Source of the DNA: Oscillospiraceae bacterium
GTDB taxonomy: Bacteria; Bacillota; Clostridia; Oscillospirales; CAG-272
Reading direction: 5' to 3'
Assembly: GCA_015064085.1 (NCBI GenBank)
Contig: SVSX01000001.1
Coordinates: forward strand, 14,172-78,171
DNA: 64,000 nucleotides
In this document: positions 5,279 through 42,434 of the stretch, piece after piece
How positions within the stretch are numbered: position 1 is the first letter of the stretch
Layout of the letters: the number at the start of each line of letters is the position of its first letter
Program-made: the position numbers and the translations under genes
Notes under the pieces: generated by a model
What the model saw: the letters and a program-made list of their open reading frames with translations, nothing else
Database searches by the model: none
What the model was told of the DNA's origin: nothing

Positions 5279-7330
5279 TTACGCCTGCTTATATTTCTCG
5301 ATGATCTTAGGAGCGATGTTAGCGGGAACTGTGTCATATCCCGTTACAGTGTACTCAAACGATCCTCTTCCCTGTGTCATAGCGCGAAGAGCTATCGGAT
5401 AGTCAACGATCTCTGCCTTGGGAGCAGTTGCGTGAACTATTGTGTATCCCTTCTTGGGAGCGGCATCCATACCCATAACCGCGCCGCGGCGCTTGTTAAG
5501 GTCACCCATTACGTCACCGACAAGGGACTCGGGAACTGTGATATCCATATCGCCCACGGGCTCAAGGATCACAGGAGCTGCAAGCTCAAGACACTTCTTA
5601 TACGCGATACTTGCCGCGGTCTTGAAGGAGATCTCATCAGAGTCAACGTCGTGGTAAGAACCGTCGTAAAGGTCAGCAGCGAGCTTAACGAGCGGGAAGC
5701 CAGCAACACCCTTAGCCATCGAGTCCTGAAGTCCCTTCTCTACTGCGGGATAGAAGTTCTTCGGAACTGTTCCGCCGACAACAGATACCGTGAAGGTAAG
5801 TCCGTCGTCCTCACCGGGGGCAAATCTGATCTTAACGTGACCGTACTGACCCGATCCGCCGTTCTGCTTCTTATGCTTTCCTTCAACGTCGACCTTCTTT
5901 GTGATCTTCTCTCTGTAAGCCATCTTGGGCTCGTCATACTGAATATTTACGCCGAATCTGCTCTTAAGCTTTGCCTCAAGAACCGCAAGGTGCATATCGC
6001 CCTGTCCGCTAATGAGCATCTGCTTTGTTTCGGAGTTATTTTCAAACTCAAGTGTAAGATCCTCTTCGATCATTCTCATGATACTCTGGGAGATCTTGCC
6101 CTCATCCTTAGCTGTAAGCGGAACCATAGCCTTTACGTAGTAGGAGTTGGGGTACTCGATGGGAGCAAACTTCAGCTCCTTGTTCCAGGTGAGTGTGTCG
6201 TTTGTATTTGTAGACGTAAGCTTAGCTACCATACCGATATCGCCGCAAGCAAGCTCGTCGACCTCGGTCTGCTTCTTACCGTTCATAATATAGATATGAG
6301 CAAGCTTTTCGCTGTCGCCCGTTGTGTTGTTCTTCATAAGGAGATCGCGCTTTACAGTACCGTTCATTACCTTGAAATAGGACATCTTTCCTACGAAGGG
6401 ATCGGCAACCGTCTTGAATACGAAGAGCGAGGGCTCGCCTTCGGGAGTGATCTCTATCTCGTCACCGTTCTCAAGCATCTCAACCTTCTTTGCGGTATGT
6501 CTCGGGAAGGACTCCGCGATCTTATCAAGAAGCGTCCATACGCCCCAGAGCTTTGCAGCCGCGCCGCAGAATACGGGAACGATATCGCCGTGGATAATTC
6601 CCTCGTGAACCGCGTTGATAGCTTCCATATGTGTTATTTCTTCGCCCTCGAAGTACTTCATCATAAGGTCCTCGTCTGTACTTGCGACAGCTTCCATAAG
6701 CATATCTCTGTACTTTTCAACCGCCTCCATAGACTCCTCGGGAATGATCTCTACGCTGTGACGTCCGTTAGCGTCGAAAACGTGAGCACTCTGGTCGATA
6801 AGGTCGATACAACCCTTGACCTCGCCGTCCTTGACCATAGGAATGGTGAGAGGACAGATGTGCTTACCGAAGGTTACGTGAAGATCGTCGAGAACTCTCG
6901 CGAAACGAGCCTCGTTATCGTCAAACTTGTTGATGAAGAAGGCGCGGGGCAGTCCTGCCTCGTCAGCATAGTTCCAGGCAAGCTCTGTTCCTATCTCGAT
7001 TCCTGCCTTACCGTCAACAACGATGATAGCGCTGTCGGCAACTCTGAGACCCTGCTTGACCTCACCAACGAAATCAAGGTAACCGGGAGTATCGATAATG
7101 TTGATCTTTGTATCCTTCCAGGTCGTATTCAGAAGCGAAGCAGAGAGCGAGAAGCCTCTCTTGATCTCTTCGGGATCAAAGTCGGAAACTGTGTTTCCGT
7201 CAGCGATCTTACCAAGTCTGTCAGATCCTCCGCAAATATATATCATTGCCTCAGCGAGAGAGGTCTTTCCGCATCCTCCGTGTCCGAGCAACGCAATATT
7301 TCTTATTTTTTTTGTTTCAATAACCGCCAT
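5279..7330 (-). CDS. elongation factor G family GTPase (stand-alone paralog, not in an rpsL-rpsG-fusA context)
   Basis: Motifs GHGGCGKTSL, DTPGYLDF and NKFD, followed by EF-G domains II-V. The ATG at 7330 has GAAAGGAGGAAGACC upstream. The ORF-track start at 7357 is probably too long. Confidence 0.85.
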   Translation of the reverse strand: MAVIETKKIRNIALLGHGGCGKTSLAEAMIYICGGSDRLGKIADGNTVSDFDPEEIKRGFSLSASLLNTTWKDTKINIIDTPGYLDFVGEVKQGLRVADSAIIVVDGKAGIEIGTELAWNYADEAGLPRAFFINKFDDNEARFARVLDDLHVTFGKHICPLTIPMVKDGEVKGCIDLIDQSAHVFDANGRHSVEIIPEESMEAVEKYRDMLMEAVASTDEDLMMKYFEGEEITHMEAINAVHEGIIHGDIVPVFCGAAAKLWGVWTLLDKIAESFPRHTAKKVEMLENGDEIEITPEGEPSLFVFKTVADPFVGKMSYFKVMNGTVKRDLLMKNNTTGDSEKLAHIYIMNGKKQTEVDELACGDIGMVAKLTSTNTNDTLTWNKELKFAPIEYPNSYYVKAMVPLTAKDEGKISQSIMRMIEEDLTLEFENNSETKQMLISGQGDMHLAVLEAKLKSRFGVNIQYDEPKMAYREKITKKVDVEGKHKKQNGGSGQYGHVKIRFAPGEDDGLTFTVSVVGGTVPKNFYPAVEKGLQDSMAKGVAGFPLVKLAADLYDGSYHDVDSDEISFKTAASIAYKKCLELAAPVILEPVGDMDITVPESLVGDVMGDLNKRRGAVMGMDAAPKKGYTIVHATAPKAEIVDYPIALRAMTQGRGSFEYTVTGYDTVPANIAPKIIEKYKQA

Positions 7331-7547
7331 GGGTCTTCCTCCTTTCTTTCGCACCATGCGAAAGCAACCAAATTATTTTTACGGTAGCTTAAAGAGCAAA
7401 AAAGCCCTCATAAAACACCATTGTTATAATTATACATTATTCTGTCAAAAATTGCAAGATTTTTTATATATATTTTACTTTTTCACATATAGAAATCCAA
7501 GGCGATTTTTTGTGCATTTTTACAATAAAAAAGCACATTTATTCCAA

Positions 7548-8339
7548 TTAGCTCAATTTTTCCCGCAAAAACTCGACAATTTTCTTTTCTTCTCTTGAAA
7601 TCTTGACCTGAGAGAGTCCAAGCGCGTCGGCGGTCTGTTGCTGAGTCATATCTCGGTAGTAGCGAAGCAAAACAATCTTCTGCCATTGAGAAGGCATCTG
7701 CGAAATTGCCTCGCCGAGAGCTATTTTGTCTCTGAGGCGCTCGAGCTCGGTCTCGCTCTCAACGTCAGGAATGAGCGCTCCCACCTCTACCCCTTCGCCG
7801 TCGGTGGAGAAAGCCTTGTCGGATAGGGATATTATCGGCGAGGAAGCATCAAGGGCGATAGCCGCCTCCTCGGGGCTGACCGAGCATAGCTCTGCCAGCT
7901 CGTCGATATGCGCCTCCCTGCCCTCGGATGACAGTATCCTCGCGCGTTCGTTCATTATCATAGCCCCAAGCCTTTTGTAGTATCTCCCCACCTTTATCGG
8001 CCCTTCGTCTCTGATATATCTCCGTATCTCTCCGAAGATAAGGGGCACGGCATAGGTGGAAAAGCTTGTACCTCTCTCAAGGTCAAAGCTTCTGATCGCC
8101 TTTATCATTCCTATCGTTCCTATCTGCATCAGGTCCTCCATATCAACGCCTCTGTCGCGAAAGCGCATCGCGATACTGCGCACAAGACCTCTGTTGGCAT
8201 CAAGGAGAAGCTCGGTGGCGCGCATCGCGTCGGTCTCGTCACCGCTCTGGGCGCGGCTGAGCAGCTCTCGGTTGAATTCGTACCCCACCCTGCTCTCGGC
8301 AGGCTGTATCATTTCACTCACAGGATCATCTTCCTTCAA
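7548..8339 (-). CDS. sigF: RNA polymerase sporulation sigma factor F
   Basis: Third gene after spoIIAA and spoIIAB. It has sigma-70 regions 2 to 4 (FSTYAVPLIFGEIRRYIRD, QQQTADALGLSQVKISREEKK). Confidence 0.85.
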   Translation of the reverse strand: MKEDDPVSEMIQPAESRVGYEFNRELLSRAQSGDETDAMRATELLLDANRGLVRSIAMRFRDRGVDMEDLMQIGTIGMIKAIRSFDLERGTSFSTYAVPLIFGEIRRYIRDEGPIKVGRYYKRLGAMIMNERARILSSEGREAHIDELAELCSVSPEEAAIALDASSPIISLSDKAFSTDGEGVEVGALIPDVESETELERLRDKIALGEAISQMPSQWQKIVLLRYYRDMTQQQTADALGLSQVKISREEKKIVEFLREKLS

Positions 8340-38910: not shown

Positions 38911-38939
38911 TTGAAAAATATCACGGAATGTGGTAAAAT
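38911..38939 (+). promoter_or_regulatory. sigma-A type promoter (TTGAAA-17-TGgTAAAAT) for the GTPase-NYN gene
   Basis: The -35 is at 38911-38916 and the extended -10 at 38934-38939, about 30 nt before the ATG. Confidence 0.55.
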
Positions 38940-38969
38940 ATATTGTATTCATAAGAAAGGAGACGGTGT

Positions 38970-41555
38970 ATGAAAAAAAAGCTGACTATCGGCATTCTCG
39001 CCCACGTTGACGCGGGAAAAACTACCCTTTCGGAAGCACTGCTCTTCCTTTCGGGTAAAATACGGAAGCTTGGTCGGGTAGATCACAAAAACACCTATCT
39101 TGATACCCATTACGTCGAGCGTGAACGAGGCATTACTATATTTTCAAAACAGGCGCGTTTTTCAAGTGAGAGCTGTGATTTTATTCTTCTCGATACCCCC
39201 GGACACGTTGACTTTTCCGCCGAGACCGAACGCACTCTTTCACTGCTTGATTACGCAATTCTCGTTATAAGCGCTCCCGACGGACTCCAGAATCACACGC
39301 GCACTCTTTGGCAGCTCCTTGAGTTTTACGGCATCCCCACCTTTATTTTTGTCAATAAAACCGACATTTCAATAAAGCTGAAGGACGAGATCGAATACGA
39401 GCTTACAAGCGCTCTTTCAAAATGTTGCGTAGCTTTTCACGAAAAGCAGACACTCTCGGAGAGAGATGAGAAATTAGCCCTTGTGAACGAGGATCTTCTC
39501 GATGCCTTCCTTGACGGAGAGACGATCGATGACGGAGATATTGCCACGCTGATCAGCGAGCGCCGTCTCTTCCCTTGCCTTTTCGGCTCTGCGCTTCGAA
39601 TGGAAGGAGTCGAATTTCTCCTTAACACCATCGACAAATATACCCTCGCGCCCGTTTACAGCTCACCTCAATTCGGCGCAAAGGTCTATAAAATAAACCG
39701 ATCGGGAGGGATGCGGCTAACATATATGAAGGTCACGGGAGGATCTCTCAGCTCACGTGACGAAATTTCCTATATCTCAGTTGACGGAAAAAGGATCACC
39801 GAAAAGGTGAATTCGATACGTCTTTATTCGGGTGATAAATTTGATCAGGTCGACTCTGTCTCGGCGGGAGAGATATGCGCCGTCGTAGGTCTATCCGCCA
39901 CCTATGTCGGTCAGGGCCTCGGAATGGAATGTGACACCTGCAAACCAATACTTGAGCCCGTGCTCTCCTTCAGAATAGAGCTTCCGTCGGGCTGTGATCC
40001 CGTTCTCTATCTTCCAAAGCTCAAGGAGCTTGAGGAGGAAGAGCCCTCTCTGCATCTTTCCTGGAATGAGGAGCTGAGGCAGATAGAAGCCCACCTTATG
40101 GGCGATATTCAGATCGATCTTCTTAAGCGAATGATATCCGACCGTTTTTCCATAGACTGCGAATTTGGCACGGGAAGGATACTATACAAGGAAAAGATCG
40201 CTAAAAGGACTGTTGGCGTCGGTCATTTCGAGCCTCTTCGCCACTATGCCGAGGTCCAATTTCTCATTGAGCCCCAGCCTAAGGGCACAGGTCTTATTTA
40301 TGACACTAATCTTCCCGAAAATATACTCGAGATAAATTGGCAGAGGCTTATCCTCTCGCATCTTTACGAGAAGACCCACCGCGGCACACTTACGGGAGCT
40401 CCGCTGACAGACACAAAGATAACTCTTGTGGCAGCTAAGGCTCACCTTAAGCACACCGAGGGCGGAGATTTCCGTGAGGCAACATACAGGGCGGTACGCC
40501 ACGGACTTATGAAGGCGGGCTGTGTGCTCCTTGAGCCATATTATAAGCTTCGGCTTGAAACGCCCAACAGCTTTGTGGGCAGAGCAATGGCAGACCTTCA
40601 GTCTATGAGCTGTGAGTTTGAGATAGAATCTTCCGACGAAGCTGTCTCGGTGATATCTGGAAAAGGACCTGTAGCTGAGCTTCACGGCTATACGAGGGAG
40701 CTTATCTCATACACTCGCGGTGAGGGAAGATTATCTCTCGTCTTTGACGGATATCTTCCCTGTCACAATACCGAGGATGTGGTAGCAAAGGCAAATTACG
40801 ATCCCGAGGCTGACCTTGAAAACACGCCTCATTCGGTGTTTTGTGAGCACGGCGCGGGGTTTGTTGTTCCCTGGCAGGAGGTAGACAGCCACAAGCATCT
40901 TGATGCGGGTATATCACTATCATCCTCCGAAATAACAATTATTCCAAGGGCATCGGGACTCGCAAAAAAATACGATCTGAGCGACGATGAGCTTGAGGCG
41001 ATAATGCTCAGAGAATTCGGTCCGATACGAAGAAAAAAATATACCGAACCTAAGAAGATATCGGCAGATCAAGACTTAAGGAAGCAAAAAAAGCGAGAGC
41101 TTTCACCGCAGAAGGGCCTTGTTATCGTTGACGGCTATAACGTGATCCACTCCTGGGACGCTTTAAAGGAGCTTGCCGAGTTCAGTCTCGAAAAGGCGCG
41201 CGAGGCGCTTATGGACATACTAAGCAATTACGTAGCCTACACAAAGACCGAGCTGACGCTAGTATTTGACGCATACCTCGTTAAGGACGGTATGGGCTCG
41301 GACTTTATCCACGACGGCTACAGAGTCGTATATACCCGTGAGGACGAAACGGCTGACACCTTCATTGAAAAAATGATGCACGAGCTTGGACCTAACTATA
41401 ATATCCGTATGGTAACGGGAGACCGACTTCTCCAGTTTTCCGCCGTCCGCTCGGGTATTCTCAGAATGACCGCTAAGGAATTTGAGGACGAGGTAACTGC
41501 CGTCGGAAACGCGATAACAGATTTTGTAAAAAAACTATCTGAAACACAGAAATAA
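38970..41555 (+). CDS. EF-G/TetM-like translational GTPase fused to a C-terminal YacP/Rae1-type NYN ribonuclease domain
   Basis: G1 AHVDAGKTT, RGITI, G3 DTPGH and G4 NKTD, with a TetM-like body of about 640 aa. A basic linker follows, then VIVDGYNVIH, LVFDAY, ETADTFIEK and VTGDRLLQ, which match B. subtilis YacP motif for motif. Confidence 0.8.
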   Translation: MKKKLTIGILAHVDAGKTTLSEALLFLSGKIRKLGRVDHKNTYLDTHYVERERGITIFSKQARFSSESCDFILLDTPGHVDFSAETERTLSLLDYAILVISAPDGLQNHTRTLWQLLEFYGIPTFIFVNKTDISIKLKDEIEYELTSALSKCCVAFHEKQTLSERDEKLALVNEDLLDAFLDGETIDDGDIATLISERRLFPCLFGSALRMEGVEFLLNTIDKYTLAPVYSSPQFGAKVYKINRSGGMRLTYMKVTGGSLSSRDEISYISVDGKRITEKVNSIRLYSGDKFDQVDSVSAGEICAVVGLSATYVGQGLGMECDTCKPILEPVLSFRIELPSGCDPVLYLPKLKELEEEEPSLHLSWNEELRQIEAHLMGDIQIDLLKRMISDRFSIDCEFGTGRILYKEKIAKRTVGVGHFEPLRHYAEVQFLIEPQPKGTGLIYDTNLPENILEINWQRLILSHLYEKTHRGTLTGAPLTDTKITLVAAKAHLKHTEGGDFREATYRAVRHGLMKAGCVLLEPYYKLRLETPNSFVGRAMADLQSMSCEFEIESSDEAVSVISGKGPVAELHGYTRELISYTRGEGRLSLVFDGYLPCHNTEDVVAKANYDPEADLENTPHSVFCEHGAGFVVPWQEVDSHKHLDAGISLSSSEITIIPRASGLAKKYDLSDDELEAIMLREFGPIRRKKYTEPKKISADQDLRKQKKRELSPQKGLVIVDGYNVIHSWDALKELAEFSLEKAREALMDILSNYVAYTKTELTLVFDAYLVKDGMGSDFIHDGYRVVYTREDETADTFIEKMMHELGPNYNIRMVTGDRLLQFSAVRSGILRMTAKEFEDEVTAVGNAITDFVKKLSETQK

Positions 41556-41580
41556 CAAAGGGCTGCGTCGCAGCCCTTTG
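41556..41580. terminator. bidirectional terminator hairpin
   Basis: CAAAGGGCTGCG-T-CGCAGCCCTTTG followed by TTATTTT. Confidence 0.75.
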
Positions 41581-41585
41581 TTATT

Positions 41586-42434
41586 TTAAAATTCTATTTT
41601 GTCAGGATGAAGTCCCGATCCGCCGAAGTTCGGAAGTCGGTCTATTATCGCCATATCCTCATCGGTTATCTCAAAATCAAAGACCTTGGAATTTTCAATT
41701 ATTCTCGACGGTGTGACAGATTTCGGGAGAGGGAGAGTTCCCTTCTGCAAGCACCAACGAATACAGATCTGAGCGACAGATCTGTCATATTTTTTTCCAA
41801 GCTCTATAAGAGTCTCGTTTGTAAGCATCCTACCGGTACCGAGAGGGCTCCACGCCTCAACGAGTATCCCGTTTTTCCTGCAATATTCCACAGTTTCACT
41901 CTGCATATATCCGGGGTGGAATTCTATCTGATCCACCATAGGAGCTATCTCTGTTTCCATAAGGGGCTCAAGGTGATGAGGGAGGAAATTGGAAACACCT
42001 ATCGCTCTGATCCTACCCGACTTATAAAGCTCGGTCATTGCCTTCCACGTACCGAGGTTAAGCTCCTTCCAATCATCAAACCTTTCGGGACTTGCGGGCC
42101 AGTGGATAAGATAAAGATCAAGATACCCAAGCTGAAGCTTTGACATCGTTCGCTCAAAGCCCTCCATTGCGAGATCGTAGCCTCGGCACTTATTCCACAC
42201 CTTACTGGTAACGAAGATCTCCCCTCGGTCTATTCCCGACTCGCGTATCGCCTCACCGACACCGCTCTCGTTTCTGTATATAGCCGCAGTGTCGATATGT
42301 CTGTAGCCCGCCTCAAGTGCTGCTTTTACCGAGGAGATCGCCGTTTCACCGTCGGGGGTCTGCCAAGTGCCAAAGCCCACACAGGGGATCTCGACTCCAT
42401 TTGAAAGCTTATATACGTCTGTAATTTTTTTCAT
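41586..42434 (-). CDS. aldo/keto reductase
   Basis: PCVGFGTWQ, YRHIDTAAIY and LIHWP motifs. The ATG at 42434 is preceded by AAAGGAGAAAG. Confidence 0.85.
   Translation of the reverse strand: MKKITDVYKLSNGVEIPCVGFGTWQTPDGETAISSVKAALEAGYRHIDTAAIYRNESGVGEAIRESGIDRGEIFVTSKVWNKCRGYDLAMEGFERTMSKLQLGYLDLYLIHWPASPERFDDWKELNLGTWKAMTELYKSGRIRAIGVSNFLPHHLEPLMETEIAPMVDQIEFHPGYMQSETVEYCRKNGILVEAWSPLGTGRMLTNETLIELGKKYDRSVAQICIRWCLQKGTLPLPKSVTPSRIIENSKVFDFEITDEDMAIIDRLPNFGGSGLHPDKIEF

Follow-up and report, generated by a model that had tools for sequence, protein, structure and literature searches.

The endoribonuclease Rae1 (YacP) of Bacillus subtilis depends on translation when it cleaves mRNA at ribosomes that have stalled or collided, and it feeds tmRNA (PMC12407103, PMC13622287). 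The cut is made at the stalled ribosome's trailing edge, 12 nt upstream of the A-site codon; an earlier docking-based model with cleavage in the A site was withdrawn in 2025 (PMC12407103). A 2026 preprint places Rae1 on collided ribosomes and reports Rae1-dependent tmRNA tagging after collisions (PMC13622287). Fusions of a Tet-like translational GTPase (trGTPase) to an NYN_YacP domain have been mentioned in passing for Clostridia by Atkinson 2015 (PMC4342817) and by Matelska 2017 (PMC5499597). We analyzed a protein of this kind encoded at 38970-41555 (+) in a stretch of 64,000 nucleotides (the window) from an Oscillospiraceae bacterium (assembly GCA_015064085.1, contig SVSX01000001.1, positions 14,172 to 78,171). 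It joins a TetM-like GTPase to a C-terminal NYN_YacP domain in one polypeptide and so belongs with the published Clostridia fusions. An earlier, sequence-only reading of the window held that no member of this architecture had been characterised, which is literally correct, but the architecture itself is published. It is already catalogued and not new. Whether the fusion is a ribosome-tethered Rae1-type endoribonuclease cutting mRNA on stalled or collided ribosomes is, in our judgment, an even call.

The fusion gene and its parts are as follows, in window coordinates.

38970..41555, + strand, coding sequence of the trGTPase-NYN fusion, 861 aa, with an ATG start and no interruption in the open reading frame list
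38979..39644, + strand, G domain (residues 4-225) with K17/T18 in the P-loop, T56 in switch I and the catalytic H79; Pfam GTP_EFTU, E 4.9e-47
39702..40169, + strand, domains II and III (residues 245-400); Pfam EF-G_D2 and EFG_III, weak, below the gathering score
40176..40517, + strand, domain IV (residues 403-516); Pfam EFG_IV, E 2.5e-12
40524..40769, + strand, domain V (residues 519-600); Pfam EFG_C, E 1.6e-19
40770..40904, + strand, conserved C-terminal extension of the GTPase body (residues 601-645), from the alignment across fusions and AlphaFold
40905..41117, + strand, variable tether (residues 646-716), from the alignment of 145 fusions, the predicted local distance difference test (pLDDT) score and a charge count
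41118..41546, + strand, YacP/Rae1-type NYN domain with predicted endoribonuclease activity (residues 717-859), from Pfam NYN_YacP and alignment to PDB 5MQ8/5MQ9

The nuclease domain matches Pfam NYN_YacP (PF05991) over residues 718-859 (E 2.5e-39; 135.4 bits, the cut-off being 24.6; positions 1-144 of the 166 in the model). It aligns to residues 3-143 of B. subtilis YacP/Rae1 (PDB 5MQ8/5MQ9) with an E value of 2e-20. The C-terminal 145 residues cover the same part of Rae1 with 37.5% identity over 120 residues (tblastn). NCBIfam is without a Rae1 model (B. subtilis Rae1 itself is unmatched), and membership in the NYN family was judged by Pfam alone. Residues D7, D53, E78, D81 and D104 of Rae1 correspond to D721, D767, E793, D796 and D818 of the fusion. 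All acidic active-site residues are thus retained, and by analogy with Rae1 the domain would be expected to cleave RNA in a translation-coupled manner. To assess conservation, we used a family alignment of 154 sequences (the window protein, 150 representatives and the Monoglobus, Agathobacter and Ligilactobacillus salivarius sequences), of which 145 are fusions. Of the 145 fusions, 143 retain any given one of the four catalytic aspartates (D721, D767, D796 and D818). The assignment of residues from about 716 to 861 to a YacP/Rae1-type NYN domain with intact acidic catalytic residues, proposed from the sequence alone, was borne out by the Pfam search and by the match to all four Rae1 aspartates and E78.

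By these alignments Rae1 is the nearest characterised relative of the fusion's nuclease. Rae1 is a free protein of ~170 aa with a C-terminal tail and is encoded in the rlmB-rae1-sigH cluster, whereas the NYN domain of the fusion is tailless, covalently tethered to a 645-residue GTPase and encoded elsewhere in the genome. The fusions stop at the equivalent of Rae1 residue ~146, without the ~25-30-residue tail found in the stand-alone Rae1 of B. subtilis and C. difficile. Loss of the tail is consistent with the GTPase body having taken over the targeting role.

The body has the motifs AHVDAGKTT (11-19), RGITI (53-57), DTPGH (75-79), NKTD (129-132) and GSAL (206-209). With G1-G5, a catalytic His after DxxG and EF-G-type domains II-V, it is a member of the trGTPase superfamily. 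EF-G_D2 covers residues 245-313 and EFG_III residues 329-400, both under the gathering score. The motifs and the Pfam domains (G, II-V) agree with the earlier view that residues 1 to ~640 form a complete trGTPase like EF-G and TetM. Residues K17, T18, T56, D75, G78, the catalytic H79, K130 and D132 are each kept in 152-154 of the 154 aligned sequences. As judged from the aligned sequences, both modules of the fusion are under purifying selection.

The tip loops of domain IV are family-specific and rich in His and Lys, reading GVGH419FEPLRH425YAEV and H492-x-K494-H495-T-E-G-G-D500-F-R. Three of the histidines (H419, H425 and H495) are kept in 152-154 of the 154 sequences and H492 in 134. This near-invariant cluster, H419/H425/H492/H495, is encoded at 40215-40457 (residues 416-496). 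Behind domain V, the conserved extension has the motif (C598-H-N)...YDPE.D..N....SVFC625.HGAG..V.W..V...H643 and matched no Pfam family. It is common to the fusion and a non-fused 639-aa homologue from L. salivarius, and Tet(M) is without it. C598, C625 and H627 of this region are conserved (40761-40850, residues 598-627). An obligatory metal site in the extension is unsupported, as C598 and C625 are each ~87% conserved with no strict co-variation.

AlphaFold was run with 84 diverse sequences in the final alignment and gave an overall pLDDT of 79.8; a model from 29 close homologues (pLDDT 59) was unusable for domain IV and the extension and was discarded. In the final model the extension is predicted with a pLDDT of ~78-90 as a helix (601-608), a hairpin (622-633) and a second helix (635-641), and pLDDT falls below 50 at residues 652-661 and 684-713 of the tether. 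Foldseek matched the model to the EF-G fold over five domains (E ~1e-49). TM-scores to whole EF-G were 0.3-0.4, and the modelled domain arrangement fits no solved state.

Across the 145 fusions the tether varies from 44 to 190 residues (median 84) and is poorly conserved. A single helix motif within it, EL..I..R..G (674-684), is semi-conserved, and a basic stretch (686-716) comes after this motif; in the window protein the tether holds 16 K/R and 11 D/E, a net charge of +5. A basic linker of ~70 aa had been described directly after the body. Residues 646-716 do act as a linker, but only 686-716 are basic and residues 601-645 belong to the conserved extension. Because the tether is long, variable and poorly conserved, the nuclease could reach many sites. 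Delivery of the RNase into the decoding centre, as the sequence-only reading had it, is not required with such a tether, and its premise that Rae1 cuts mRNA in the A site was revised in 2025 by the laboratory that had put it forward (PMC12407103).

The body could still place the NYN domain in or beside the decoding centre, with the A-site codon cut as by RelE. The intact NYN active site speaks for such a model. Factors of the EF-G/TetM type extend domain IV into the A site. In cryo-EM work on TetM-ribosome complexes the polypeptide after domain V reportedly returns towards the decoding centre; if so, a C-terminal fusion could start near it. Domain IV in the A site would, however, leave no space for a domain of ~145 residues, judging from EF-G and TetM complexes, and a long (median 84) variable tether suits reach over precise placement. 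The Rae1 version of the model rested mainly on docking, and its authors have replaced it with a cut 12 nt upstream (PMC12407103). We regard cleavage of the A-site codon by the fusion as unlikely.

With a Rae1-type nuclease tethered to the ribosome, the following sequence of events can be proposed. The five-domain body in its GTP form would dock at the factor-binding site when a ribosome has stalled or collided and its A site is free, and there the His/Lys-rich tip loops of domain IV may probe the decoding region. The flexible tether of 44-190 residues would hold the NYN nuclease at high local concentration. By analogy with Rae1, it would cut mRNA on or next to the arrested ribosome, at the ribosome edge or at the interface of collided ribosomes, and not at the A-site codon. 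GTP hydrolysis on the sarcin-ricin loop would free the factor, and the cut mRNA and the stalled ribosome would be handed to trans-translation and/or ribosome-associated quality control (RQC) through RqcH/YlmH. Translation surveillance is the most plausible function of the fusion. Of the earlier proposals of a surveillance, stress or anti-phage candidate, the first is supported in this sense, and the anti-phage one is unsupported.

How Rae1 is recruited to the ribosome and where it sits are unsettled, and the fusion is a natural, covalently tethered version of it. A GTPase-dead or GDPNP-trapped fusion could lock on ribosomes, making the placement of Rae1 directly testable. The likeness to the collision sensors MutS2/RqcU and SmrB of bacteria and Cue2/NONU-1 of eukaryotes is one of analogy and not homology, a ribosome-state sensor carrying or recruiting an endonuclease, which in these proteins is of the SMR type. 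SmrB (PMC13622287) and MutS2 (PMC11317155) act as endonucleases on stalled or collided ribosomes and feed tmRNA or RQC, and the sensor of MutS2 is an NTPase. The MutS2 type combines an ABC-type clamp with an SMR domain and the fusion a trGTPase with an NYN domain; the folds are unrelated, and collision sensing or splitting by the fusion would be an analogy only. We also entertain, more tentatively, the idea that the family rescues ribosomes of gut Clostridia after stalling or collision and is self-contained in doing so. This would be a GTP-gated sensor with a tethered Rae1 nuclease and possibly EF-G/RRF-like splitting, with products passing to YlmH/RqcH quality control and tmRNA. Such a factor would be a functional analogue of MutS2/SmrB in one protein and might have replaced stand-alone Rae1 in these lineages.

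To determine how common the fusion is, we searched protein clusters and species genomes. A homology search gave 120 clusters at 73-100% identity among the matches listed, all of ~860 aa and with identical Pfam architecture, and a profile search gave a further 120 homologues at 47-52% identity, again among the matches listed. In an exhaustive search of representatives at 50% identity, ~140 of the best 150 clusters were fusions (830-1150 aa, 38-54% identity). A frameshift or an assembly error as the source of the fusion is ruled out because hundreds of independent sequences share the same co-linear architecture.

One genome per GTDB species was then scanned with the peptide patterns H[FY]EPLRHY and [IL][VI]DGYNxI[FYH][AS]. 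At least 600 matches were obtained, of which 597 among those listed were confirmed relatives, in Clostridia. The phylogenetic survey called for by the earlier reading thus found the fusion to be widespread in species representatives of this class. Our analyses of species loci rest on the best 80 of the at least 597 confirmed relatives, and all 80 are full fusions. They come from Oscillospiraceae, Ruminococcaceae, Acutalibacteraceae, Lachnospiraceae (Blautia, Roseburia, Oliverpabstia, Faecalimonas) and Monoglobales, and include Faecalibacterium prausnitzii, Intestinimonas butyriciproducens, Flavonifractor, Dysosmobacter and Anaerotruncus. Monoglobus pectinilyticus and Agathobacter rectalis also encode the fusion. 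The closest species representatives among the matches listed are uncultured Eubacteriales/Clostridia metagenome-assembled genomes (MAGs), one from sheep colon, with ~70% identity over the C-terminal half. Many of the dominant commensals of the gut have the family (Faecalibacterium, Roseburia, Blautia, Agathobacter, Intestinimonas and Oscillospiraceae), and the fusion could be their main nuclease for stalls and collisions. A full Clostridia-type fusion (45% identity) is also present on the 6.7-kb contig CAVEPP010000094.1 of a MAG labelled Alloprevotella sp. (Bacteroidota); this is probably binning contamination, the other option being horizontal transfer.

In 12 of the 80 species loci, a targeted search found a ylmH homologue (YlmH_RBD and S4 domains) directly downstream of the fusion and in the same orientation. 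The fusion stop and the ylmH start overlap by 8-25 nt in six loci and are separated by a gap of 5-10 nt in two more. The 12 linked fusions are from Oscillospiraceae-type genomes, are 54-73% identical among themselves and form one clade, so the pair arose once. As the genes beyond the pair vary between loci, its two genes have stayed together despite much divergence and rearrangement. The RQC factor YlmH binds 50S-peptidyl-tRNA complexes and is able to take the place of RqcP (Takada 2024, PMC11317155); the fusion as a neighbour of ylmH goes unmentioned in that paper. The linkage fits the fusion acting upstream of RQC.

The surroundings of the gene bear on whether the fusion is a toxic effector, inactive until stress or phage infection and then destroying mRNA, tRNA or rRNA on ribosomes to turn translation off. 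A nuclease aimed at the ribosome is potentially lethal, and many NYN/PIN nucleases are toxins (Matelska 2017, PMC5499597). In Agathobacter rectalis a BrnT/CopG toxin-antitoxin pair adjoins the fusion. However, PADLOC gave no defence-model match for the fusion, and its identity as a defence system was rejected on that search. All-against-all clustering of neighbours in 79 loci found no general conserved partner and no conserved immunity gene. The contexts looked at are ordinary metabolic or housekeeping ones and contain no mobile-element genes. An 86% relative has identical synteny, with ffh, rpsP, khpA, glpK, mgtE, nitroreductase and peroxiredoxin genes on one side and aldo-keto reductase, solute symporter, paaK and iorAB genes on the other. 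Relatives at 74-75% identity, like the members in Lachnospiraceae, Monoglobus and Agathobacter, have entirely different neighbours, which are again ordinary metabolic or housekeeping genes.

Viral contigs point the same way. Among 2.9 million scanned, about six matches belonged to the family, mostly at contig ends or on short contigs, and the others were tet(M)/(O)/(W). A phage origin of the fusion was considered for two 'Bacteriophage sp.' records and rejected, as both are unverified fecal scaffolds of bacterial chromosome. One of them, MT835514.1 ('UNVERIFIED: Bacteriophage sp.'), encodes addB/addA, cspB, feoB, a ZIP transporter, rsmH, the fusion, gltX, vanZ, a small alarmone synthetase and glpK; it is bacterial chromosome and not phage because it encodes addAB, cspB, feoB, rsmH, gltX and glpK. 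In this record the fusion is directly upstream of gltX. Presence in hundreds of species and host-like GC content are unlike the patchy distribution of defence genes. With its species breadth, its GC content and the synteny conserved with the 86% relative, the distribution looks like that of a housekeeping gene. We therefore consider a toxic effector highly unlikely. The earlier suggestion of an abortive anti-phage effector finds no footing in the PADLOC result, the ordinary chromosomal contexts, the lack of a conserved partner and the near-absence from viral contigs.

A third possibility is that the body tests the factor site of a new or damaged ribosomal subunit while the NYN domain acts on rRNA or tRNA, trimming or cleaving it. 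LepA, BipA and eukaryotic EFL1 are trGTPases that work in subunit maturation. The first prediction made for YacP was that of an enzyme in rRNA/tRNA processing, from an operon with mini-III and RlmB (Matelska 2017, PMC5499597), and the mini-III/RlmB operon of yacP is visible in C. difficile and B. subtilis. In one uncultured Oscillospiraceae locus a mini-III-type RNase III gene (7625-8221 of that locus) lies ~500 nt downstream of the fusion. This neighbour is nevertheless found in just 1 of the 80 loci, and the fusion is outside the rlmB-sigH cluster in every locus looked at. None of rlmB, sigH and cysS is beside the fusion in ~85 loci, and the gene is thus not in the (gltX-cysS-mrnC-)rlmB-yacP-sigH location. 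All experimental data on Rae1, moreover, concern mRNA (PMC12407103, PMC13622287). A role in biogenesis or processing is accordingly distinctly unlikely in our view.

We also looked for a second NYN gene beside the fusion. None is encoded in the 64-kb window or in any of the fetched fusion loci, all of which are parts of genomes only. Likewise, in the Monoglobus and Agathobacter records of a plasmid collection, also parts of genomes only, the fusion is the sole NYN gene. The sigH locus of Monoglobus is without its usual rlmB-yacP neighbours. According to PLSDB these records are Monoglobus 'plasmid 12' (517 kb) and A. rectalis 'plasmid unnamed1' (251 kb). They carry secA, sigH, pta-ackA, hisD and a methionyl aminopeptidase gene and look like chromosome pieces or chromids, not plasmids.

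Several points weigh against a ribosome-tethered Rae1-type nuclease that cuts mRNA. Full-text literature searches yielded no experimental study of any Tet-like/NYN_YacP fusion. It could be rRNA or tRNA, and not mRNA, that the nuclease cuts. Non-fused members of the family exist, so the body has some function without the nuclease. The link to ylmH is limited to one clade and one evolutionary origin, and neither the window nor the majority of loci show it. Given the low-pLDDT linker and TM-scores of 0.3-0.4, the AlphaFold model is silent on the position of the NYN domain relative to the body. Finally, the partial-genome records do not separate a replacement of Rae1 from an extra, specialised paralogue.

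Like Tet(M) and Tet(O), the fusion has a five-domain trGTPase of TetM-like size with complete GTPase motifs, and these proteins are its best NCBIfam/CDD-type match. It could then be a ribosomal protection protein against tetracycline with an accessory RNase, as suggested by Atkinson 2015 (PMC4342817), where the Tet-like/NYN fusions are placed in the Tet subfamily, and as PGAP, the genome annotation pipeline of NCBI, names several members. The best NCBIfam match is tet_protect (NF012153), in one stretch over residues 6-594, and the body has the length of TetM and is without the G' insertion of EF-G. The score of 386.6 bits is, however, far under the cut-off of 775, and the cut-offs of all the specific Tet models are likewise missed by far (NF033148, 241.8 against 1100; NF012155, 206.6 against 1420). 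The body shares just 28-29% identity with Tet(M)/(O)/(W). In TetM, Pro509 contacts C1054 in the tetracycline site (PMC8161019). Where loop III of TetM has Y507-S508-P509-V510-S511, the fusion has H492-L493-K494-H495-T496, the S-P-V segment being replaced by L493-K494-H495 and the proline absent. The same replacement of the Pro509 loop is found in the Monoglobus and Agathobacter fusions. Unlike Tet(M) and Tet(O), the fusion has a different C-terminal extension and a nuclease, and its gene is chromosomal and not on mobile elements, with neither a leader nor an attenuator upstream.

In a simple neighbour-joining tree, the fused and non-fused members are monophyletic relative to Tet(M), the mean distance being 0.96 among family members and 1.66 between them and Tet(M). 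The non-fused members are scattered among the fusions, and some of them may be truncated gene calls. On this tree the GTPase body is a clade, or subfamily, of its own within the EF-G/TetM-like trGTPases. That the fusion protects against tetracycline is, on these sequence comparisons, extremely unlikely.

Databases name the fusions 'GTP-binding protein', 'NYN domain-containing protein' or 'TetM/TetW/TetO/TetS family...'. Many fused and non-fused members are annotated by NCBI as 'TetM/TetW/TetO/TetS family tetracycline resistance ribosomal protection protein'. Because the window member fails the Tet models and has the replaced loop, as have the Monoglobus and Agathobacter fusions, resistome surveys may over-count tetracycline resistance genes in Clostridia. 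With the window member far under the cut-offs of the Tet hidden Markov models, and with both it and its aligned relatives without the Pro509 loop, these genes are probably over-called in Clostridia and lactobacilli.

The body was also compared with EF-G and EF-G2, with which it shares the five-domain fold, the catalytic His79 and the G motifs. It is 22-25% identical to them and scores under the cut-offs of the EF-G models (TIGR00484, 259.9 against 659.4; PRK12740, 270.7 against 583). The long G' insertion of EF-G is missing from the G domain, which is ~50-70 residues shorter, and the alignment of the two is interrupted there. The window encodes a second trGTPase at 5279-7357 (-), a protein of 692 aa with five EF-G domains (EFG_IV 1.1e-32, EFG_C 3.9e-24). 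This is presumably EF-G or an EF-G paralogue, and the fusion body is 22% identical to it.

The signals around the fusion gene in the window are as follows.

38911..38939, + strand, promoter-like site TTGAAA, 17 nt, TAAAAT, with TG (extended -10), 10/12 matches in a consensus scan
38959..38962, + strand, Shine-Dalgarno sequence GGAG, 7 nt 5' of the ATG, from reading the sequence
41550..41586, no strand assigned, GC-rich hairpin of 17 bp, likely bidirectional terminator, from a terminator scan and the sequence

The predicted leader between the promoter-like site and the gene is ~25 nt, with no attenuator and no leader peptide visible in its sequence. Rfam and tRNA scans of the window had zero matches, so none lies near the fusion gene either. 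On the + strand the stem of the hairpin at 41550-41586 continues into TTTTAAAATTCTATTTT. Because it is located between the convergent fusion and aldo-keto reductase genes, it is probably a bidirectional terminator shared by the two. The GC content of the fusion gene is 48.5% and that of the window 46.2%. In the open reading frame list the genes on either side, bcp/nitroreductase on one and the aldo-keto reductase on the other, are both on the opposite strand. The sequence-only reading was right about a single uninterrupted frame of 861 codons (38970-41555, +) and about unrelated neighbours of opposite orientation. Its monocistronic gene with a promoter and terminator of its own holds in part: the promoter-like site makes the gene a candidate single-gene unit, but the hairpin is shared with the aldo-keto reductase gene.

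The non-fused members include 'Tet-like' GTPases of Lactobacillales. One of these, the 639-aa WP_283475094 from a Ligilactobacillus salivarius megaplasmid, is 45.8% identical to the fusion over residues 3-645. It shares the domain IV loops and the extension ending at ~645, but is without the linker and the NYN domain. On the megaplasmid (NZ_CP114513.1, 3700-7900) the 639-aa member is divergent from an ArsR/SmtB metalloregulator. Near it are genes for a DsbA-family oxidoreductase, a copy of rpsN (S14) and a 'putative metal homeostasis protein', which hints at a metal-stress context for the body-only form.

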